Both the position numbers and the translations under genes were made by a program. A DNA stretch of 64,000 nt from Candidatus Poseidoniia archaeon (GTDB taxonomy: Archaea > Thermoplasmatota > Poseidoniia > MGIII > CG-Epi1), in assembly GCA_030754655.1 (NCBI GenBank), contig JASLZX010000001.1, positions 91,059-155,058 on the forward strand. The letters run 5' to 3'. The notes beneath the pieces are model-generated. The model made no database searches. It was not told the origin of the DNA and was given only the letters and a program-made list of their open reading frames with translations. This document shows, one piece after another, positions 19,130-48,963 of the stretch (positions are counted from its first letter, which is position 1; every line of letters begins with the position of its first letter).

Positions 19130-19487
19130 CCTGCGCTTCCCGCCCGCGGACGAGACGCATTACGTCTACGACAAGGAGGCGGTCGGCGAAGGCTCGCGCT
19201 ACGGCGAATCGACGGTCGGCAATGTGGAGGAACGCACTTGCCGCAGCTGTGGCAAGTCGTTCAACTGGGCCTTCAAAGTTGGCAACGCGATGACCGATTC
19301 GACGCCGGCCGGTGTCGCGCACGCGGTCGACAACGGCGCCAGTCGGGGCTACTGCACGATTGAATGCTTCATGGCGGGCGATTCCGACCTCGAACAGGCG
19401 ACGCTCGACCGCGACTCCGCCGGGCTCTGGACGCTGGCGAAGCGCAACTGGTTCGGGCTGAAAGTGCTGCGCGGACTGGGCCGCTAG
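19110..19487 (+). CDS. Hypothetical small Cys-containing protein
   Basis: 125 aa with CRSCGKS…CTIEC, a possible Zn-binding site. Overlaps the preceding gene by about 20 nt and converges on radA with a 4-nt overlap. Confidence 0.3.
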   Translation: MMTTSSDLRFPPADETHYVYDKEAVGEGSRYGESTVGNVEERTCRSCGKSFNWAFKVGNAMTDSTPAGVAHAVDNGASRGYCTIECFMAGDSDLEQATLDRDSAGLWTLAKRNWFGLKVLRGLGR

Positions 19488-20434
19488 TCGCGAATTCCGT
19501 CTTCCAGAATCTGCACCACCGCTTCCCCGTCGGGGAGATGTGGTGAGTCAACGAGTCGGAAGATGCGTTTGCCTGCCTTGCCGCGCCGGATATAGATCCT
19601 GAATTTTGAGGTGTGGCCGACGATGTGGCCGCCAATTGGCCTGGTCGGGTCGCCGAAAGCGAAACCGTCCGGCTTGGAGAGCACTTGATTAGTGACTGCC
19701 ACTGCAGCGTTATGCTCGTCTGCGAATTTAGTCAGGGCCTCCATATGACTGCCGATTTTGCCCTGCCGTTCGGCTAGCATGCCGCGGCCGATATACTCCG
19801 ACCGGAACGCGCCGGTCAGTGAGTCGACCGCCAGTAACCGGATTGGCCGCTCCTCGGCCAGTTGCTTGACTTTATCGACCATCAGCATCTGCTGGTGCGA
19901 GTTGTAGGCGCGGCCGACGTGGATGCGAGCCAGCACCTCATCGGGGTCCAGATCCAGGGCTTTGGCCATCGAGACGATGCGCTCGGGGCGGAAGGTATTC
20001 TCGGTATCGATAATCGCAGCTTCCCCATTCAGGCCCCCCTGCTCCTCCGGCAGCTGCACGGTCACTGCCAGCTGGTGGATAATCTGCGTTTTACCCGAAC
20101 CGTATTGTCCATAGAATTCGGTGATTAACTGCGTCTCGACGCCGCCGCCGAGCAGTGCGTCCAGCTCGCTGGAGCAGCTGGTCAGCTTGCCTACAGTCTG
20201 CCGTTTCTCGAGCAGTTCAGCCCCCGTCAGGATTCCACCAATATCGACCATACCGATTGCGGCATGGATGATCTCAGCGCACTTAGAATTACCAACACCA
20301 GCAGCCTCGCCCAGGCGCGAGGGCGATTGAGTCGCAATCGATTCGAGGGTACGGTATCCTGCACCTCGTAGTTTATCGCCGATGGTGGGACCGACCCCGG
20401 GGAGGTCCTCGATTGATTCTTCTTTCTTGCCCAT
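19484..20434 (-). CDS. radA: DNA repair and recombination protein RadA
   Basis: N-terminal HhH (LPGVGPTIGDKLRGAGY), Walker A GQYGSGKTQ and a RecA-fold core. 316 aa. Confidence 0.9.
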   Translation of the reverse strand: MGKKEESIEDLPGVGPTIGDKLRGAGYRTLESIATQSPSRLGEAAGVGNSKCAEIIHAAIGMVDIGGILTGAELLEKRQTVGKLTSCSSELDALLGGGVETQLITEFYGQYGSGKTQIIHQLAVTVQLPEEQGGLNGEAAIIDTENTFRPERIVSMAKALDLDPDEVLARIHVGRAYNSHQQMLMVDKVKQLAEERPIRLLAVDSLTGAFRSEYIGRGMLAERQGKIGSHMEALTKFADEHNAAVAVTNQVLSKPDGFAFGDPTRPIGGHIVGHTSKFRIYIRRGKAGKRIFRLVDSPHLPDGEAVVQILEDGIRD

Positions 20435-20555
20435 CAGCGCCTCCGGGGGATGGTTACCTGTGGTAGTTCGACTTCCCGCAGCCAGTCAAACTCGTGCGGG
20501 TCTTCCCAGCGCGGGGCGATAGCCTCGAGGAACTCGCGTACAGACTTGCTCGGCA

Positions 20556-21503
20556 TCATGCCACCCGGAATTTGTTGAACGCTGGCTGGTAGGTCAACCC
20601 CTGGTCGTTGAGCGAGTCGATGACCTCGTCGAGGCGCGAGCCGTCGATGCCGGCCGCCGCTGCGGAATCGCGCAGCGTCTCGTAGATTACGCCTTCTCCA
20701 TCGCCTTCCTTGTCGAGCGAGCCTATGAGTTCGAGCACGGCCGCCTCGGCGTCCGCGTCGCCTTCCGGCTCCCCGTCAGGCGCTGCGGCAGGCGTTTCAT
20801 TGCCTACAGGGGTGTCCTGCTCCGCTATGGGCGCAGGCGCTTCCGGTGCCACCGGAGCCGCTTCCACGTTGCTAGCGGTCTCGAACTCGCCGGTGAACTG
20901 CGCCGTGCTCGGCGCAGTCGTGTCGCCGCTGAGATTCCGCAGGCAGTCGTAGAGCAGTCCGGCGTAGGATTCGGTCGATACCGTCTCGTATTTTTCCTGC
21001 GCCAGGCCGAGCCCTTCCTTTTCGCGGTTGCTCAGCTCGGCATCGTCGCCCTTCAGGCGGCGCATCAGTGATTCGCACGCCTTGATGGCCCAGACCGAGA
21101 CTTCCTGCTCGCTGACCGCGCGCACGTTCTCGGGCTGGACGCTGACGTAGACCGAGTCGCTGTCGTCAGGCGAATAGGCACGCACCCTCCCGACGGAGAT
21201 TACGTGCGTGGGCGTCTCGATTTTGGAGAGCGCCGCAGCGCCTTCGGGATTGTACTGCCCGGCGCGCAGGTAGTAGGTGTCGCCGTGTGGGTCAACCATG
21301 CGCGCCATGTAGAACGGATCCGTCTCGCTGCCGCGGTTCTCGACATCGGTCAGAATGCCGCCGATGAGCACGCGCGAGAGCTTGGAGCCCATCTCCGAAA
21401 TCAGGTAGGTGGGCGAATACTCGCGGTCCTCGACATGCGTCTCGTGAGCGCGCGAAAGCTCCTGCGCCAGTACCGGAAGGGCCGGTTCCCTGCGACGCGC
21501 CAT
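20556..21503 (-). CDS. RPA-associated OB-fold protein (RPA32/RPAP-like) with C-terminal winged-helix-like tail
   Basis: N-terminal OB-fold region (…RVLIGGILTDVENRGSETDPFYMARMVDPHGDTYYLRAG…), an acidic linker and a C-terminal …IYETLRDSAAAAGIDGSRLDEVIDSLNDQGLTYQP. Directly downstream of rpa1 on the same strand. Confidence 0.5.
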   Translation of the reverse strand: MARRREPALPVLAQELSRAHETHVEDREYSPTYLISEMGSKLSRVLIGGILTDVENRGSETDPFYMARMVDPHGDTYYLRAGQYNPEGAAALSKIETPTHVISVGRVRAYSPDDSDSVYVSVQPENVRAVSEQEVSVWAIKACESLMRRLKGDDAELSNREKEGLGLAQEKYETVSTESYAGLLYDCLRNLSGDTTAPSTAQFTGEFETASNVEAAPVAPEAPAPIAEQDTPVGNETPAAAPDGEPEGDADAEAAVLELIGSLDKEGDGEGVIYETLRDSAAAAGIDGSRLDEVIDSLNDQGLTYQPAFNKFRVA

Positions 21504-22838
21504 TCAGGCCTCCAGCGCCGCCAGGAATTGCTTGGCGACAGAGGGCACGTCAAGGTTGTGTGCTGGCCGGCACTTGTGCGCGAAGAACATCAGGCCGTAG
21601 TCGTCGGAGCGTGTGTACCCCTCCACCGTCAGTGGCTTGAGCAGAAGTGCCTGCTCCAGTTCTTCGGTCAGCGCCTCAGCGGAGTAGTTCTCGCGCACCA
21701 GCTCGAGGCACGAATCGAGGTCGCGCCCCAGCACCTTCTCGGTCAGCTCGCGGTTCAGGAATAACTGTAGTGAACCGGTGCCGTCGTCGAAGAGCAGCTT
21801 GGTCCGCAGGTCGGGCGGTCCCTCCTGCTCGCCGTGCACCATGCACTGCCGGCTGCGGAGCACGCGGTTGCACTCGGGGCAGCGGAAAATCAGCCCGCTG
21901 CCCTCGCGCACTGCCAACACGTGCCCCTCCAGGAGCGCGTCGCTAGCGCCGCCGCGCTCGTCGAGCAGGTCGATAGTGTAGCTGGTCCCCACCGCCAGTT
22001 CTTCCAGCGACGGGAGTTCGGCGTCGACCGCGCCCACTACGGTGTTTTCGTTGATTTGCAGCTCGGGGATGCCCTGCCACTCGCGCACGTAGGCGTTGCC
22101 GATTTCGTAGATGGTATCGGCCTGTAGTTTGTGGTCGTGCCAGGCGGTGAAGCGGCAGCTACCGCTGGCGTCTGCCAGCGTTCCGCTCCAGAGCGCTTTC
22201 GGCTCGCCGCGCACGGTCACCTCGCGCTCCTGCACATCCAGGATGCGCACGGTCAGTGTGACCGAGCCCATACCGTTCCGTAGTCCCGCAACGTCGCTCG
22301 CGGAGCCGGCGGTCGGACTGCCGGCCGCCGGCACATCCAGCGCCGCCAGAGCCTCGTCCTCGACCTCCCGCACCCGGCAGCGATCGCCCAGATTCAGGTC
22401 GACGCGGTCTTTCCACCCCTTGGAATAGGCGTTGGTGACCTCGAGGATCGTCCCCGGCTCGGCCGTGAACTCGTCACGCCAGACGGTGAAGCGCAGGGTA
22501 GCGCTGCCGTCGGCGATTTCCCCCTCGAAAATGGTCTTCTGCGAGCCATCCTTCAGATTGATTTCCTTCGAGAACACAGACACGATCTTCGCGCGGAAGC
22601 TGACCGATGCCTCGTCCGCTTTGATGTTAGCCAGCGGCATGAATGCGCTGGCCTGCAACGTGCGGGGGTCGCCATAGTGCTTCCGGACAATCGCCTCCTT
22701 GGCGGTTGCCAGATCGATGCCGTAGTTCTCCACGTATTGCCTCAGTTCTTCGACAATCGTGGCTTCGTCCAGTTTGTTTTCCAGGGCCTCTGCAATGTCC
22801 TTGACATGCGGGCCAAAGTCGGTTTCGTTTGCTTGCAT
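21504..22838 (-). CDS. rpa1: Replication protein A large subunit (multi-OB-fold ssDNA-binding protein with Zn ribbon)
   Basis: Several OB folds (…ATLRFTVWRDEF…, …CRFTAWHDH…) and a Zn ribbon (CPECNRVLRSRQCMVHG). I take the start at Met16 (MQANETDFGP). The track ORF extends to 22883 from a TTG. Confidence 0.75.
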   Translation of the reverse strand: MQANETDFGPHVKDIAEALENKLDEATIVEELRQYVENYGIDLATAKEAIVRKHYGDPRTLQASAFMPLANIKADEASVSFRAKIVSVFSKEINLKDGSQKTIFEGEIADGSATLRFTVWRDEFTAEPGTILEVTNAYSKGWKDRVDLNLGDRCRVREVEDEALAALDVPAAGSPTAGSASDVAGLRNGMGSVTLTVRILDVQEREVTVRGEPKALWSGTLADASGSCRFTAWHDHKLQADTIYEIGNAYVREWQGIPELQINENTVVGAVDAELPSLEELAVGTSYTIDLLDERGGASDALLEGHVLAVREGSGLIFRCPECNRVLRSRQCMVHGEQEGPPDLRTKLLFDDGTGSLQLFLNRELTEKVLGRDLDSCLELVRENYSAEALTEELEQALLLKPLTVEGYTRSDDYGLMFFAHKCRPAHNLDVPSVAKQFLAALEA

Positions 22839-23011
22839 GGAGTATCTCCTTTGTTTATGCCCCAGGACTCCACCCCGGGACAACCCACATACCCCACTAG
22901 GGGTTATAAACTTAATGGTGATTATGTGATTTACCCTTTTTGGACATTATACTATTATGGGTGAATGGGCGCATCTCAACTGTTATATGGAGGCCAGTCT
23001 CGGCGCAGCCG

Positions 23012-23536
23012 ATGAGGGTAGACGAATTGACCCCGCGCAGCAGCCGCGTCAGCATGGCGGTCAAGGTGCTGTCGATGGACGAGCCCCGCGATATTGAGAG
23101 CGGCGGGCGCGTTTGCGAGGGACTGGTAGGCGACGAAACCGGCACGGTTGTGATGAGTTTCTGGGACGAGGAACGTGATCAGGTGGCGGTCGATGCGACC
23201 ATCTGGCTCAAGGATGCGCGCGCCACGTTGGTACGCGGTTCGTTGCGGCTCAGCCTCGGCAAGTTCGGGTCGCTGGACGAGCTCGGCCGTGAAGTGGGAA
23301 GCGTCCGCGACGACCTCAACCTCTCCGATCTTGCGTATGCAATGCCGCGGCCGGACCGCGGACGTGGTGGTGGCCGGGGCGGCGGCGGCGGTGGCAAGTG
23401 TTTCAACTGCGGCAAGCCGGGCCACATCTCGCGTGAATGCCCGGAAGGTGGCGGCGGTAAGCCAGGCGGCGGTAAGTGTTTCAACTGCGGCAAGCCGGGC
23501 CACATCTCGCGAGAATGCCCCGACCGGGGGAACTGA
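23012..23536 (+). CDS. OB-fold protein with RGG box and two CCHC zinc knuckles
   Basis: OB-like N-terminus ([54 protein letters not shown]…). Then [13 protein letters not shown]. Then two copies of [15 protein letters not shown], which is C-x2-C-x4-H-x4-C. The track ORF starts at 22940; the real start is uncertain. Confidence 0.6.
23396..23520 (+). repeat. Tandem 47-nt direct repeat (46/47 identical) encoding the two CCHC zinc knuckles
   Basis: aagtgtttcaactgcggcaagccgggccacatctcgcg[t/a]gaatgccc occurs at about 23396-23442 and 23474-23520. Confidence 0.8.
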
Positions 23537-23636
23537 GCTGGCGCGACGCGGGCGGCACCGCAGGCGCGGCCCCAAGAAGGCGCAGCCTCCGCGACGCAAG
23601 GAGAAGAAACCGCAGAAGCGGCAGATCCGGCAGCGC

Positions 23637-23876
23637 ATGCTCAATCCCGCGCGCCGGACTGAGACGATTTACTTTTTGGACGAGGCGCTGCAGGAATCGG
23701 ACTTGGGCGAGAAAGAGACCGAGCCGTTCATTGCCACGCTGGTAGCGCTGGCGACGCGCGAAACGCTGGGCGCCGCGGCCGACCTACTGGAAGAGAAAAG
23801 CGGGGAAGGCATCATCACCCCCGACATGAGCGAGCGGCTGCTCAGGATTATGAGCCGCTTTTCCGTAATGCGGTGA
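23637..23876 (+). CDS. Hypothetical small acidic protein; start uncertain
   Basis: MLNPARRTETIYFLDEALQESDLGEKETEPFIATLVALATRETLGAAADLLEEKSGEGIITPDMSERLLRIMSRFSVMR. The same frame is open upstream and encodes a K/R-rich stretch (…RRGRHRRRGPKKAQPPRRKEKKPQKRQIRQR) back past the stop of the zinc-knuckle gene. Confidence 0.3.
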   Translation: MLNPARRTETIYFLDEALQESDLGEKETEPFIATLVALATRETLGAAADLLEEKSGEGIITPDMSERLLRIMSRFSVMR

Positions 23877-23894
23877 GCTTTTTTAGCGTCCGCC

Positions 23895-25727
23895 GTGCGG
23901 CCGGTCCTGATGGCCAGCGACGACGAGGCTGCAGCCGCCGACATTCTTGATGAGGAGCAGCCGCCGACAGGACCGCTGCGCCAACCCATCGTGGCTGTGC
24001 TGGGGCACGTCGACCATGGTAAGACGTCGCTGCTCGACTGGGTGCGCGGCACCGCGGTCGTAAGCCGCGAGGCGGGCGCGATTACGCAGCACATCGGCGC
24101 GACCGAGGTGCCGTTCGAGACCATCAGCGACATCTGCGGCGCACTGTTGCCGGAGGAGAACATCCGGCTTCCCGGGCTACTCTTCATCGACACCCCCGGC
24201 CACCATTCCTTCAGTACCCTGCGTGCGCGGGGGGGGCAGCTGGCAGACCTGGCGGTGCTGGTCGTGGATATCATGGAGGGCTTCAAGCCGCAGACCATAG
24301 AGTCGTTGCAGGTGTTGCGGCGGGCGCAGACGCCCTTTATCTTGGTGCTGAACAAGATTGATAGGCTCCCCGGCTGGCGCACTCGCAAAGGCACTTTCGC
24401 CGCCAATCGGCAGGGGCAGTCGCAGCTGGCGCAGGATGCGCTGCAGGAGCGCATCTGGGAAATCGTGCGCACCTTAGGTGGACACAACTTCGATTCGGCG
24501 CTCTACTCCGAGGTCGAGGATTTCCAGAAGACGATTGCGTTAGTGCCTACATCAGTCCGTGACAGCGGCGAAGGCGTCCCCGAGCTGTTCATGCTGCTGA
24601 TGGGGCTGGCGCAACGCTATCTCGAAGGGCGGCTGGTGCTGAAGGAGGGCGTAGCTGAGGGGACTGTGCTCGAGGTAAAGGAGGAGCGCGGGCTCGGCAA
24701 GACGCTGGGGATTATAATCTATAACGGCGTCCTGCGCGCGAGCGACACGCTGATCATCGGCGCGACCCCCGAGCCGTTGGTAACGCGCGTGCGCAGCCTG
24801 CTGCAGCCGCGGCCGCTGGACGAAATTCGCGACCCGCGCCAGCAGTTTAACGTGGTCACAGAGGTTGCTGCCGCCGCCGGCCTGAAGGTGGTCGCGCCCG
24901 ACCTTGAGGGCGTCATTGCCGGCGCGCCTTTCTACGGAGTCCCACAAGGCGACGATATCGCGCCGGTGTTGGAACGGCTTTCGGGGGAGATGGAGAGCAA
25001 CGTCGCGCTCGAGGACCGCGGGCTAGTGGTGCGCGCCGACGCCATCGGCTCGCTTGAGGCGCTTGCCTACGAATTGCAGGAAGCGGGCGCGCCAATCATG
25101 CGCGCCGCTGTCGGCGACGTCTCGCGCCGCGACGTGCGGCTGGCTGAGACCGCGCCGGCCGAGCAGCGCGCGGTGCTGGCGTTCGGCGTCAACGTGCTGC
25201 CCGACGCGCGCGAAGCACTGGTCGAGAGCGAAGCGAAGCTCTTCGAGGCGGACGTGGTTTACCAGCTGGTCGAGGAGTACGGTGAGTGGCTGGCGGAGTT
25301 AAAGCGCGAACAGGCCAGAACGTTGCGCGAGGAATTCCCGCACCCCGGCAAAATCGAGTTCCTGGAAGGGCACACCTTCCGCACGCGTGACCCCGCCGTC
25401 TTCGGCGTGCGCGTGCTGGCGGGGCGTATCATGGTCGGCCAGAAAGTGCTGCGCGCCGACAACCACGTCATCGGCCGTATCCGCTCGATGCGCTCCGGGG
25501 AGCAAGGCCTGAAGGAGGCGACGCAGGGCGACGAAGTCGCGATTGCCGTGACCGAGGCGACGGTCGGTCGGCAGGTAAACGAGGGCGATATTCTTTATAT
25601 AGAGATGGACGAGCGTGACGTGGTGCGTTTGCGCGACGAAAACGTCAAGCTGACGCCTGACGAGGAAGACGTCATCACTGAGTTGCAACGCATCAAGAAG
25701 GCGGATTCCCCGTTCTGGGGCCGTTGA
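23895..25727 (+). CDS. infB: Translation initiation factor aIF5B (IF2-type GTPase)
   Basis: G-domain motifs GHVDHGKTSLLD, DTPGH and NKID, followed by domains II-IV. 610 aa. Confidence 0.9.
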   Translation: MRPVLMASDDEAAAADILDEEQPPTGPLRQPIVAVLGHVDHGKTSLLDWVRGTAVVSREAGAITQHIGATEVPFETISDICGALLPEENIRLPGLLFIDTPGHHSFSTLRARGGQLADLAVLVVDIMEGFKPQTIESLQVLRRAQTPFILVLNKIDRLPGWRTRKGTFAANRQGQSQLAQDALQERIWEIVRTLGGHNFDSALYSEVEDFQKTIALVPTSVRDSGEGVPELFMLLMGLAQRYLEGRLVLKEGVAEGTVLEVKEERGLGKTLGIIIYNGVLRASDTLIIGATPEPLVTRVRSLLQPRPLDEIRDPRQQFNVVTEVAAAAGLKVVAPDLEGVIAGAPFYGVPQGDDIAPVLERLSGEMESNVALEDRGLVVRADAIGSLEALAYELQEAGAPIMRAAVGDVSRRDVRLAETAPAEQRAVLAFGVNVLPDAREALVESEAKLFEADVVYQLVEEYGEWLAELKREQARTLREEFPHPGKIEFLEGHTFRTRDPAVFGVRVLAGRIMVGQKVLRADNHVIGRIRSMRSGEQGLKEATQGDEVAIAVTEATVGRQVNEGDILYIEMDERDVVRLRDENVKLTPDEEDVITELQRIKKADSPFWGR

Positions 25728-27528
25728 AGCCGCGCACCAGCGCCGGTACCGCGCTGCTGGTGCAGTGCCGCACTTCTTTCGGAAGGAAGCGGCGGTAGGG
25801 GCGGTGCCCCAGCCGGTTGTCGTAGAGCAGCACCACGCCGCGGTCGGTTTCGCTGCGGATGCAGCGGCCGGCCGCCTGCAGCACGCGGTTGACTGCCGGG
25901 TAGGTCTGCGCGTAGAGACGCCCCTTTCCGTCGCCGAATTTTCGCTCGAAATACTCTTCGAGCTTCTTCTGCTCGAGCGATGGCGGTGGCACTGGTATCC
26001 CGACGACGGCGACTGCGGCGAGCAGGTTGCCGGGATAGTCGACCCCCTCGCCGAAGATGCCCCCCATCACCGCTAGCAGCAGCGCGTCGCGCTGCTGTAG
26101 CCGGCCGAGCAGCGCCGTCCGCTTTGCCGGGGATGCACCGCGCTCCTCGAGCAGCAGCGCCTTGCCATGCTCGCCGAGCCGGCTGGCGACCTCATCGCGC
26201 AGCGCGTAGCTCGGGAAGAACGCCGCGACGTTGCCCGGCGTCGCCTGCGCTACGGCGGTCAGCGACGCCGCCAGCTTGCGGTAGAGCGGGTCGCCGCGGT
26301 TGCGGTAGAGCGTCGAGACGTCGTCGACGCAGAGCAGTAGCCGGTTTTCGGGCGGGAAGGGCGAGCTATAGGTCGCCTTGCGGGAGCGCTCCGTGTCGAG
26401 TCCGAGCAGGTCGCGGTAGAAGCTGCGCGGTTTCAGCGTGCCCGACATCAGCACCGAGCCGCGCACGGCGCGGAAGACCGGCGCGCTGATTGATGCGGGG
26501 TCGAGCAGCCGCAGCGAGAGTTTGCGCTGCCATGGCTTGTCGCCGCCGTGCGCCAGCCGCAGGTCGCTACCTTTCCTCAGGAAGCGCCAGTGGTGCAGGA
26601 AATCTGCCACGTCGCCCATGCGCGCCACCTTGCCACGCTGCAGCCTCCGCTGGGCGGACCGCTCGAGCAGCTGCACGAAGCCCTCCAGATCGGTCAGTTT
26701 CTGCTTCAGCGCCGCGTCGAGCATGCGGCTGACGCTGCCGCCGTCAATCTCCTTCTCGCCTTTGTGGTCGGTCAGGCTCTCGACCAGCCGCTCTAGGATT
26801 GAGAGCTGCGCGCGCAGCGCCTGCCCCGCCTCACGCTGCGCTTCGCGGATACGCTGGAGCGAAAGCGTTGGCGATGCGGAGAGCCGGATGCGGTCGGGCA
26901 GGTTGTGTGCTTCGTCGACAATCAGCAGCACCTCCTCCAACGGCCGCTGGATGCGGTCCCAGACTACGTCGGACCACGGGGTGAAGAGGTAGTTGTAGTC
27001 GCAGACCAGCACGTCGCATTCCTGTGCCGCTTCCAGCGCGACGCGGTGCGGGCACTGCACCTCCTCGCGGCAGAGTGCCTTCAGGTCGGCCGCCGAGAGC
27101 GGCTCGTCGAAGACCTGCGGCAGGAACTGGGGGTTGTAGCCGGCGTGGTAGCTGCAGTCGTTGTTGCGCACCAGTGCGGTGCAGACTGCCTGGAAAACGC
27201 CGTAGCGACTCTCGTCCAAATCGTCGCGCGGGCACATGTCCTGCTTGGAAATCACATCCACGATTTTCAGCGGTTGCTGCGCGTGAATCCGTTTCAGTGT
27301 CTCGACGAAAATAGCGTGCTGTGTCTGCCGTGACGTCAGCGCCACCACCAGTAACCCTCGCTCTTGCGCCACCTCGACCGCGGCGGTCAGCGCCGCGGCG
27401 GTCTTTCCCAGTCCAGTGGGCGCGTGCGCTAGCAGGCGCTCGCCGGCAGCGAACGCCGTGCGGCAGTCATCCAGCATAGCATCCTGCCCCTTGCGGAGCT
27501 CCGGGAACGGGAACAAGGAGCGCCCCAC
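25693..27528 (-). CDS. XPD/Rad3-family (DinG-like) FeS-cluster SF2 helicase
   Basis: Motif I HAPTGLGKT, a 4-Cys FeS region (CPRDD…C…C…C) and DEAH (IVDEAHNL). 611 aa. The 3' end overlaps the infB 3' end by about 35 nt (convergent). Confidence 0.75.
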   Translation of the reverse strand: MGRSLFPFPELRKGQDAMLDDCRTAFAAGERLLAHAPTGLGKTAAALTAAVEVAQERGLLVVALTSRQTQHAIFVETLKRIHAQQPLKIVDVISKQDMCPRDDLDESRYGVFQAVCTALVRNNDCSYHAGYNPQFLPQVFDEPLSAADLKALCREEVQCPHRVALEAAQECDVLVCDYNYLFTPWSDVVWDRIQRPLEEVLLIVDEAHNLPDRIRLSASPTLSLQRIREAQREAGQALRAQLSILERLVESLTDHKGEKEIDGGSVSRMLDAALKQKLTDLEGFVQLLERSAQRRLQRGKVARMGDVADFLHHWRFLRKGSDLRLAHGGDKPWQRKLSLRLLDPASISAPVFRAVRGSVLMSGTLKPRSFYRDLLGLDTERSRKATYSSPFPPENRLLLCVDDVSTLYRNRGDPLYRKLAASLTAVAQATPGNVAAFFPSYALRDEVASRLGEHGKALLLEERGASPAKRTALLGRLQQRDALLLAVMGGIFGEGVDYPGNLLAAVAVVGIPVPPPSLEQKKLEEYFERKFGDGKGRLYAQTYPAVNRVLQAAGRCIRSETDRGVVLLYDNRLGHRPYRRFLPKEVRHCTSSAVPALVRGFNGPRTGNPPS

Positions 27529-36062: not shown

Positions 36063-36137
36063 TGCTCCCGCCGGGATTCGAACCCGGGTGTTCGGCTCGA
36101 GAGGCCGAGATGATGGGCCGGACTACACCACGGGAGC
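36063..36137 (-). tRNA. tRNA-Glu (anticodon CTC); 3' CCA genomically encoded (36060-36062)
   Basis: The reverse complement folds as a cloverleaf: acceptor GCTCCCG/CGGGAGC, anticodon stem TCGGC/GCCGA with loop CTCTCGA, T-arm CCGGG-TTCGAAT-CCCGG. A BRE/TATA-like gacgaaagctattaagg lies about 25 nt upstream. Confidence 0.8.
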
Positions 36138-40277: not shown

Positions 40278-40379
40278 GCGCAGCCAGCGGTGGACGGGAT
40301 TAACGGTTGGCGGCGGCAGCCAATTGCTGCCGCCGCCCCGACTTAATGCTTATCATCCCGCCACAATGGCGCCTGCGCG

Positions 40380-40462
40380 CCAGGATCGCCTAGTCCGGTA
40401 GGGCGGTGGTCTCGAAAACCACTGGGGTCTCCCCACGGGGGTTCGAATCCCTCTCCTGGCGC
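40380..40462 (+). tRNA. tRNA-Ser (anticodon CGA), class II long variable arm; CCA encoded (40463-40465)
   Basis: Acceptor GCCAGGA/TCCTGGC. Anticodon stem GTGGT/ACCAC with loop CTCGAAA. Variable arm TGGGGTCTCCCCAC. T-arm GGGGG-TTCGAAT-CCCTC. A TATA-like cttaatgcttatcat lies upstream. Confidence 0.8.
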
Positions 40463-43745: not shown

Positions 43746-43819
43746 GGGCCGGTAGATCAGTCTGGAAGATCGCCTCCTTGGCATGGAGGAGGGCGCGAGT
43801 TCAAATCTCGCCCGGTCCA
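43746..43819 (+). tRNA. tRNA-Ala (anticodon GGC), G3:U70 present; CCA encoded (43820-43822)
   Basis: Acceptor GGGCCGG/CCGGTCC. D-stem GATC. Anticodon stem CCTCC/GGAGG with loop TTGGCAT. T-arm GCGAG-TTCAAAT-CTCGC. Confidence 0.85.
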
Positions 43820-45605: not shown

Positions 45606-45689
45606 CGCGAGGAGGGGGATTTGAACCCCCGTGGGACAAGCCCATCGGATTAGCAATCCGACGCAATGGCCAGGCTATGCGATCCTCGC
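45606..45689 (-). tRNA. tRNA-Ser (anticodon GCT), class II; CCA encoded (45603-45605)
   Basis: Reverse complement: acceptor GCGAGGA/TCCTCGC, anticodon stem TCGGA/TCCGA with loop TTGCTAA, long variable arm TGGGCTTGTCCCAC, T-arm GGGGG-TTCAAAT-CCCCC. Confidence 0.8.
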
Positions 45690-48890: not shown

Positions 48891-48963
48891 GGGCCCGTAG
48901 CCTAGCTGGAAAGGCGCCGGCCTTCTAAGCCGGAGACCCGGGGTTCGAATCCCCGCGGGCCCG
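48891..48963 (+). tRNA. tRNA-Arg (anticodon TCT); CCA encoded (48964-48966)
   Basis: Acceptor GGGCCCG/CGGGCCC. D-stem GCCT/AGGC. Anticodon stem CCGGC/GCCGG with loop CTTCTAA. T-arm CGGGG-TTCGAAT-CCCCG. Confidence 0.85.

Follow-up and report, generated by a model that had tools for sequence, protein, structure and literature searches.

A 64,000-nucleotide stretch of DNA from a Candidatus Poseidoniia archaeon (hereafter the window) carries a gene, ssb-ZnK, for a small single-stranded DNA-binding protein (SSB) with zinc knuckles. Directly behind its TGA stop codon, in the +1 frame, lies a lysine- and arginine-rich reading frame that continues to position 23876. The question raised by this locus is whether that frame is translated and, if so, where its translation begins. 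The initial annotation had noticed the open frame and offered three accounts of it: an independent small gene with an odd N-terminus, the product of a programmed +1 frameshift, or a sequencing indel. The frame is indeed open as described, encoding RRGRHRRRGPKKAQPPRRKEKKPQKRQ and then a helical region, and a GGGGG run is located at 23526-23530. We refer to it as gene X. As argued below, ssb-ZnK and X are probably two genes of one short operon, in which X starts at a CUG codon, assisted by a Shine-Dalgarno (SD)-like element and coupled to termination of ssb translation. The features concerned are the following (nt, nucleotides; pLDDT, predicted local distance difference test; pN/pS, ratio of non-synonymous to synonymous change).

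23012-23536, + strand: ssb-ZnK gene, 174 amino acids plus TGA, with an OB fold, an RGG box and two CCHC knuckles
23526-23531, + strand: SD-like GGGGGA within the ssb 3' end, 7 nt upstream of the CTG; putative function
23534-23536, + strand: ssb stop codon TGA, 1 nt upstream of the proposed X start
23538-23540, + strand: CTG, the proposed X start codon, at which the N-termini of the family align
23538-23876, + strand: gene X, 112 amino acids plus TGA, called as 79 amino acids from ATG 23637
23541-23636, + strand: basic, disordered N-terminal tail of X (ARRGRHRRRGPKKAQPPRRKEKKPQKRQIRQR), median pN/pS 0.14, pLDDT ~50
23646-23864, + strand: four-helix domain of X, residues 37-109, pLDDT ~90 in an AlphaFold2 (AF2) model

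The basic stretch behind the ssb stop is protein-coding

Best protein matches identify the host of the window as an MGIII (Poseidoniia) archaeon near CG-Bathy2, which is bathypelagic. One genome per GTDB species was scanned, giving a comparative set of 36 species-level MGIII sequences (the window and 35 genomes). Seven of these, including the window, are bathypelagic and of high guanine-plus-cytosine (GC) content (57-65%), and 29 are low-GC (35-48%); the Bathy1 lineage was kept separate. Conservation of the gap downstream of ssb and of a T6 tract was judged in one four-genome alignment, and that of the promoters in another.

Gene callers begin X at ATG 23637 and report a 79-amino-acid protein (P0121-P0124), as they do in the MGIII gene calls that we examined. 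If X were this 79-residue protein only, the 100 nt upstream would be a non-coding leader or an RNA element. Two observations agree with such an arrangement: the methionine encoded by this ATG, Met34 of the longer product, is invariant in the 36 genomes, and the ssb stop is separated from the ATG by a fixed gap, which measures exactly 100 nt in every high-GC relative and 101 nt in low-GC relatives. However, in the four-genome alignment nearly all substitutions in the gap are synonymous changes at third positions of codons in the K/R-rich frame, and low-GC MGIII genomes encode the same peptide with different codons (*GNGRRVT-LARRGRHRRRGPSKAQPPVRKDKKVQKRNKPKA-MLDEG...). Searches with tblastn recovered residues 1-112 of X in one frame at 34 of 36 loci, the other two loci covering residues 8-112 and 22-112, and the first twelve residues (LARRGRHRRRGP) are invariant in all 36 sequences. 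Arginine positions of the tail are each served by three to five codons, including exchanges between CGN and AGR, and the codons for Gly, His, Pro, Ala and Lys vary too. Mean column entropy is accordingly concentrated at the third codon position (0.39, 0.28 and 1.15 bits at positions 1, 2 and 3). Median pairwise pN/pS is 0.14 for the tail, below the 0.24 of the helical domain, and ~2 when the same tail nucleotides are read in the other two frames. The frame also stays open through the tail in genomes of 35-48% GC; the other two frames hold 11 and 81 stops.

Invariant residues, synonymous turnover and low pN/pS together establish that this frame of the basic stretch encodes protein. Judged by these substitution patterns, the K/R-rich frame is the translated N-terminal tail of X, and the suggestion of an independent small gene with an odd N-terminus is borne out by conservation and a coding signal across the 36 MGIII sequences. 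There is, moreover, no consistent SD motif before ATG 23637. At the position of Met34, several family members have L, F or K and Bathy1 has a TTG codon, and the same basic tail is found in members of the family whose starts are canonical. We regard a product confined to the 79 residues as extremely doubtful. An Rfam scan of the window reported five tRNA genes (listed below), no other RNA family above threshold, and no match at the ssb/X junction.

An indel introduced during sequencing or assembly might have split a single gene, as the G5 homopolymer immediately before the ssb stop could suggest. The same stop, G-run, frame and 100-nt spacing recur in independent clade assemblies from different projects (L001-L010, L017-L022), and comparison of orthologues for fused and split versions found ssb and X split throughout the MGIII order. 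Coding conservation of the basic stretch rules this explanation out, and we assign it practically no probability.

A conserved CTG at the proposed start of X

The X frame of the low-GC genomes is closed by a stop only 7 codons before the CTG (11 codons in two genomes), and between this stop and Met34 it contains no ATG, GTG or TTG. Codon 1 of X is CTG in 36 of 36 sequences. By way of control, Leu35 uses six leucine codons and Leu68 uses four, and CTG accounts for 5% of leucine codons in the X genes of low-GC genomes. The site is not a mutational cold spot, because the base just upstream varies (T/C). Many distant homologues from an exhaustive hidden Markov model search start with ATG exactly here (MARRRGRR, MARRGKYRG, MGRRRRGRRSRGP and MQRRRRR), the long MGII homologues beginning MQRRRRRKAEP. 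A Met-initiated MGIII protein would begin MARRGRHRRRGP, which fits the MARR/MGRRRR pattern of these homologues.

The sequence around the codon is also suggestive. An SD-like GGGAGG is invariant 9 nt upstream of the CTG in the low-GC clade, and Bathy1 (L053), which has ATA at the CTG position, carries a perfect GGAGGT 7 nt upstream. SD motifs ahead of the long ORFs of the window, surveyed crudely for comparison, gave too noisy a picture to be of use. The junction between the ssb stop and the X start reads TGA-G-CTG in high-GC genomes and TAA-CT-CTG or TAG-CT-CTG in low-GC genomes; in Bathy1 (ATAGCTAG) X overlaps the ssb stop by 8 nt, in the +1 frame. Stop-start distances of -8 to +2 nt support termination-reinitiation in Haloferax and Escherichia coli (PMC10666635, PMC6728339). 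The ssb-X pair resembles the coupled pairs of Haloferax volcanii in that its stop lies within this distance of the start and an SD-like motif lies inside the upstream gene (PMC6728339, PMC10666635). The Haloferax cases employ ATG or GTG in ATGA or TGATG overlaps, whereas the restart codon of ssb-X would be CUG (AUA in Bathy1). In Haloferax, a gap of 13-14 nt lowers reinitiation by ~40-60% and one of ~22 nt abolishes it (PMC10666635; PMC6728339), which argues against coupling of ssb to an ATG 100 nt downstream. Ribosome profiling of H. volcanii found that ~30% of putative alternative initiation sites are near-cognates of AUG (PMC7261190), so near-cognate initiation is plausible in archaea. Among the hits listed by a literature search, none described a conserved archaeal CUG start.

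One further sequence differs at this site. A singleton low-GC MGIII variant from a metagenome (L057 1-180; ENA ERZ23488670, a 568-nt contig) carries a G->T change, GGAGGC to GGATGC, which creates a new in-frame ATG three codons before the CTG, removes the SD-like GGAGG and alters the end of the SSB from MGGE to MGCE; the gene caller reports the long form of X for it (MRVTLARRGRH...).

Frameshifting and upstream initiation are less likely

Programmed +1 frameshifting, or transcriptional slippage on the G5 run, at CGG_GGG_AAC_TGA would instead yield an SSB-ZnK/X fusion of ~31 kDa. As in prfB (RF2), a G-rich SD-like run precedes the in-frame UGA and the coding sequence downstream is read in +1. 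Both bathypelagic lineages show this +1 placement of X, and the conserved X peptide starts no more than two codons from the ssb stop in every clade. Nevertheless, the offset of X differs between the clades: it is +1 in 7 genomes, all high-GC, and +2 in the other 29, which are low-GC. In the latter, the permissive window spans only 7 codons and contains neither a slippery sequence nor a homopolymer (site GAG_TAA_CT). The G5 run could in principle allow slippage in the window, whereas the low-GC clade has no such homopolymer. In the high-GC site (AAC_TGA_G), AAC cannot re-pair as ACU in the +1 frame. In contrast to prfB, there is no slippery CUU_U-type codon, and the downstream part is an independent family whose homologues elsewhere are free-standing, begin M-x-RRRR and lie away from ssb. 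No shift motif is common to the clades, and frameshifting would leave the invariance of the CTG without explanation. The differing frame relation and shift site thus do not support a conserved, order-wide recoding event, and the frameshift raised in the initial annotation now appears quite unlikely.

Another suggestion is that in high-GC genomes a canonical GTG located before the CTG serves as the start of X, whose +1 frame would then overlap the region of ssb that codes for the knuckles. The X frame of the window is open for 127 codons upstream and contains GTG codons, and callers choose such a GTG in Bathy1. In Bathy1, TTG replaces Met34 and the callers pick various GTGs within GGT-GGT repeats, so that the N-termini differ and the products range from 124 to 132 amino acids. 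Variable sites before the ssb stop in the clade alignment are mostly third positions of ssb codons and alter residues of the +1 frame, and the length of the overlap would change with knuckle copy number. The stop 7 codons upstream precludes a start of this kind in low-GC genomes. Altogether, an upstream GTG seems very unlikely.

A more serious variant, compatible with the account that we prefer, is dual initiation, in which CUG would give a 112-residue isoform and AUG-34 a 79-residue isoform. In its favor are the invariance of Met34, the fact that its TTG replacement in Bathy1 is also a start codon, and the expected weakness of CUG as a start. No SD-like motif precedes ATG 23637, however, and in the wider family the position is often occupied by the non-start residues L, F or K, and this points to a hydrophobic role in the structure. 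We consider dual initiation rather unlikely, but a good deal less so than the alternatives above.

On balance, initiation of X at the CUG, coupled to ssb termination, remains the probable explanation. Several observations nonetheless count against it. The host MGIII archaea are uncultured, and CUG initiation rests on sequence comparison. The SD-like GGGGGA of the window is imperfect. Bathy1 has ATA in place of CTG together with an in-frame GTG 13-17 codons upstream within ssb that is a possible start. In high-GC genomes the frame is open far upstream, and stops alone leave room for an overlapping start. The shared +1 frame of both bathypelagic lineages is equally a point for recoding, and the invariant Met34 means that the 79-residue product is possible as well, or instead.

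In the mechanism that we propose, initiator tRNA would read the CUG at 23538 as methionine, giving a protein that begins MARRGRHRRRGP. The G-rich SD-like element in the last ssb codons would assist initiation, and ribosomes terminating at the ssb stop 1-2 nt upstream would restart at the CUG by termination-reinitiation. Such coupling would tie the output of X to that of SSB at a low ratio. The Glu-C peptide predicted from the X tail is LARRGRHRRRGPKKAQPPRRKE, or its Met-initiated form.

A stronger proposal is that the CUG is a selected regulatory device, with X made essentially only by reinitiation after ssb, at a low X:SSB ratio, and working directly with SSB, as its partner or modulator, on single-stranded DNA or RNA. 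A precedent is provided by bacterial infC, in which an AUU near-cognate start is invariant across the lineage, suggesting selection for a weak or regulated start. X differs from infC in its CUG codon, its archaeal host and its uncharacterized protein product. We advance this proposal tentatively, and doubt it more than we believe it.

X represents an uncharacterized Thermoplasmatota family

In an AF2 model of X based on 30 family sequences, residues 1-35 appear disordered (pLDDT ~50) and residues 37-109 form a four-helix domain (pLDDT ~90). Neither Pfam nor NCBIfam gave a match for X or for ten distant homologues, and a profile search of the PDB with X returned nothing significant (best E 0.053). 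An exhaustive profile search collected 149 cluster representatives of the family. X shows the family pattern, namely an Arg-rich N-terminus followed by a C-terminal domain of ~79 residues ending R[FY][ST]x[YWMR]R. The named members, which belong to MGIII, to MGII (Thalassarchaeaceae) and to Methanomassiliicoccales (BRNA1), are all labelled hypothetical, and some members have long low-complexity linkers. X is therefore a member of an uncharacterized Thermoplasmatota family with a basic tail and a four-helix domain.

Some family members (P0304, P0321 and P0355) carry an N-terminal zinc-ribbon-like motif, CxxC...TPGRPV(Y/F)CRxCF (also PVYCRxCF), before the basic linker and the four-helix domain. 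This motif may hint at a nucleic-acid-binding role for the X family.

Archaeal gene pairs coupled by termination-reinitiation often encode partner proteins (PMC6728339, PMC10666635). Our best guess, given how rich the tail is in arginine and how tightly the gene is coupled to ssb in MGIII, is that X is a nucleic-acid-binding partner of SSB. A functional link between the two is weakly grounded, however, because X adjoins ssb in MGIII only. Outside MGIII, the X homologues (in MGII, after kae1/tsaD; in BRNA1; and on one other contig) have no shared neighbor, so that gene context offers no functional clue.

ssb-ZnK encodes a simple SSB with an array of zinc knuckles

The upstream gene combines an OB fold with a C-terminal tail composed of the following elements.

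23033-23275, + strand: SSB/hSSB1-type OB fold, by PF21473, NF005049, PDB matches, AF2 and Foldseek
23357-23395, + strand: RGG box, read from the sequence
23399-23440, + strand: CCHC zinc knuckle 1, by PF00098 and motif scan
23477-23518, + strand: CCHC zinc knuckle 2, the terminal unit, by PF00098 and motif scan
23387-23445 and 23465-23523, + strand: two repeat units encoding the knuckles, with a 78-nt period, 59 nt at 93% identity

An open reading frame (ORF) is present at 22940-23536, as first described. Its start is not the TTG at 22940 but ATG 23012 (MRVDEL...), as in all orthologues, which begin MRVDEL or MKVDEL. The N-terminal domain had been described as OB- or cold-shock-like. It matches Ssb-like_OB (PF21473; E 2e-11, 44.3 bits against a cut-off of 24), and at E <= 1 Pfam gave no match to the cold-shock domain (PF00313). 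The best NCBIfam score was to NF005049 (equivalog PRK06461; 86 bits, E 2e-24), which does not reach the cut-off of 188, so ssb-ZnK is, by sequence score, a family relative of PRK06461 and not an equivalog. Against the PDB, phmmer matched the OB region to Arabidopsis 1wjj (2e-9), to Sulfolobus SSB (1o7i/2mna/7wcg, ~2e-7) and to human SOSS-B1/hSSB1. The AF2 model from 25 homologues places strands at residues 10-22, 33-41, 44-51, 63-74 and 77-81 and a helix at 52-55, with a core pLDDT of only 65-80 and an unmodelled C-terminal tail (pLDDT < 50). Its best Foldseek matches were hSSB1 (5d8f), 1wjj, 1o7i, 7wcg and RPA OB domains, all with probability 1.00. The OB fold is thus upheld, as an SSB/RPA-type domain, and the cold-shock fold is not. 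We consider ssb-ZnK to be the simple archaeal SSB of its MGIII lineage, predicted from these matches to bind single-stranded nucleic acid.

The tail contains two zf-CCHC domains (PF00098; E 2e-17, 62.7 bits against a cut-off of 20.8) with C-x2-C-x4-H-x4-C spacing, a glycine after Cys2 and an aromatic residue after Cys1. In a six-frame translation of the 64-kb window this motif occurs at the two knuckles and nowhere else, so these are not chance matches. Moreover, every Cys and His is kept without exception across 23 units drawn from eight sequences (the window, six other species-level clade genomes and locus L001), and the motif is also present in P0001-P0007. The knuckles are therefore genuine, with their spacing kept in orthologues. 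For residues 121-172 the best PDB match was to retroviral nucleocapsid knuckles (E ~2e-6), and a scan of viral contigs found no relatives of SSB-ZnK.

The knuckles lie in tandem repeat units, and the near-perfect 47-nt duplication reported earlier was recovered as a core with 46 of 47 identities within the 59-nt units. Tandem Repeats Finder did not report the 78-nt repeat, which has only two copies, and it was found by a separate repeat search. Knuckle tails are confined to the 7 high-GC genomes, with 2, 2, 3, 3, 3, 3 and 4 copies. Adjacent internal units are 96-100% identical in DNA within one genome; terminal units are 96-98% identical to each other between genomes and ~80% identical to internal units. 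Near-identical internal units and orthologous terminal units imply that the array grows and shrinks by recent duplication of the 78-nt unit, in keeping with the recent expansion first proposed. Copy number may, as a caution, be miscounted in short-read metagenome assemblies.

All MGIII orthologues have an RGG-type linker after the OB domain. Beyond it, the 29 low-GC genomes share a conserved tail without knuckles (...WGxLMKLKRDTGNKKFFNRDEMSEEQIEAAIKEMGGE), and the Bathy1 tail is (GGGHR)n, also without knuckles (L053 180-990). An additional knuckle-free form (P0008) occurs on a 10,976-nt contig of 3.7x coverage (L056 3300-3990; ENA ERZ505250). It has an OB domain 97% identical to that of the window and a Gly/Lys-rich tail (GKGGGKGGRGGKGNRPGG...), its sequence diverges right after the RGG box, and an unrelated ORF lies where X would be. 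We set this variant aside as evidence, as it is probably a chimera or a rearranged strain.

Several known proteins resemble SSB-ZnK in part. Saccharolobus solfataricus SSB (1O7I) and hSSB1/SOSS-B1 likewise have a single RPA-like OB fold and a flexible Gly/Arg-rich tail, and such simple SSB systems coexist, as here, with multi-OB RPA genes. Their tail is an acidic protein-interaction tail, whereas that of SSB-ZnK ends in 2-4 CCHC knuckles. The plant cold-shock-domain proteins AtCSP/WCSP1, as well as Lin28 and CNBP, also join a small beta-barrel binder to Gly-rich spacers alternating with C-x2-C-x4-H-x4-C motifs, and these proteins act as nucleic-acid chaperones. SSB-ZnK differs from them in its SSB/RPA-type OB domain, its archaeal host and its restriction to one clade. 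The mimicry of Lin28 and CNBP noted in the initial annotation therefore holds for architecture only, because the barrel is not a cold-shock domain, and the likeness is convergent or a product of domain shuffling rather than of orthology. Retroviral knuckles such as those of HIV-1 NCp7 have the same motif and spacing, but SSB-ZnK lacks a Gag context and its knuckle units are split by Gly-rich linkers. By analogy with the retroviral nucleocapsid, the knuckles most likely provide SSB-ZnK with a second module for binding single strands or for annealing them. A literature search found no report of an architecture joining an SSB to zinc knuckles. We conclude that this joining of an SSB to an array of zinc knuckles is a new domain architecture, restricted to one clade and assembled from known parts.

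Genomic context of ssb-ZnK and X

The probable operon is flanked by RPA-type genes and radA on one side and by aIF5B on the other, and candidate promoters and a candidate terminator can be assigned around it.

19484-20434, - strand: radA, divergent from ssb-ZnK
20556-21503, - strand: RPA2-like gene, divergent from ssb-ZnK
21504-22841, - strand: RPA1-type gene (rpa1), NF005554 E 5e-97, ATG at 22841
22904-22914, - strand: TATA-like box for rpa1 (TATAAACTTAA on the + strand), invariant in the four-genome alignment; role suggested by position
22982-22990, + strand: TATA-like box GTTATATGG for ssb, 22-30 nt upstream of the ATG, invariant in the alignment
23879-23884, + strand: T6 tract just after the X stop, conserved in the alignment; candidate archaeal terminator
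23910-25727, + strand: aIF5B (infB), 3' of X

The order radA / 41-codon ORF / RPA2-like / RPA1 // ssb / X / aIF5B is retained in every relative fetched. As had been noted, ssb-ZnK is divergent from rpa1. The promoter, however, is not shared: the 170-nt intergenic region contains two conserved TATA-like boxes ~75 nt apart. On the rpa1 side, an SD-like GGAGAT precedes the ATG by 5 nt, and the distance of 22-30 nt between the TATA-like box and the ssb ATG suggests that the ssb mRNA is leaderless or has a very short leader. Together with the T6 tract, the position and conservation of the TATA-like boxes suggest an ssb-X bicistron. A tie of ssb-ZnK to replication, hinted at earlier, has gene order as its sole basis.

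A number of other features were observed in the vicinity. The 41-codon ORF (MMPSKSVREFLEAIAPRWEDPHEFDWLREVELPQVTIPRRR; 20434-20559, - strand) sits between the RPA2-like gene and radA, each of which it overlaps by a few bases. In most of the high-GC relative loci that we examined (L001, L003, L004, L056), but not in every one, a 41-amino-acid gene is called here; its product might serve the RPA/RadA set as a small third subunit or as a partner. In three low-GC loci (L011/L012/L014, 5861-7054, + strand), a gene for a 397-amino-acid class-V aminotransferase, absent from the high-GC clade, lies between X and infB, and its ATG directly abuts the X stop (TAG or TAA, then ATG, with a 0-nt gap). A few kilobases 3' of infB, low-GC MGIII loci encode an 84-amino-acid protein with an RRM_1 domain (PF00076; L011 9737-9991 and L014 9722-9976, - strand), an RNA-binding module typical of eukaryotes and bacteria. 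In the window, infB (+ strand, to 25727) converges on a gene for an XPD/Rad3-like helicase (25693-27528, - strand), and the 3' ends of the two overlap by ~35 nt. This helicase contains DEAD_2 and Helicase_C_2 domains in relatives, and the same overlap with infB is called in all of them. The five tRNA genes found by Rfam are located at 36063-36137 (-), 40379-40461 (+), 43746-43819 (+), 45606-45689 (-) and 48891-48963 (+).

Implications

Annotation of X in MGIII as a 79-amino-acid protein drops its most conserved segment. Gene finders restricted to ATG, GTG and TTG will repeat this truncation, and "79-amino-acid" family members in other Thermoplasmatota may be affected. Lineage-wide conserved near-cognate starts are rare in prokaryotes, and we know of none documented for CUG in Archaea. 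If the regulatory reading of the CUG is true, X would be, to our knowledge, the first order-wide conserved CUG-initiated archaeal gene, and ssb-X the first natural coupling by way of a restart codon other than AUG, GUG or UUG.

A copy-variable, retrovirus-like knuckle array on an SSB OB fold is unusual in archaea and occurs in deep-water, high-GC MGIII only, where it suggests an added strand-annealing or RNA-chaperone activity. X itself belongs to a small-protein family with no counterpart in Pfam, NCBIfam or the PDB. Neither the SSB-knuckle architecture nor X and its CUG is categorically new. The ssb-X locus nevertheless provides a natural test case for start-codon stringency and termination-reinitiation in archaea. 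Together, these results offer an annotation correction, an uncharacterized protein family and a test case for non-AUG coupled initiation.

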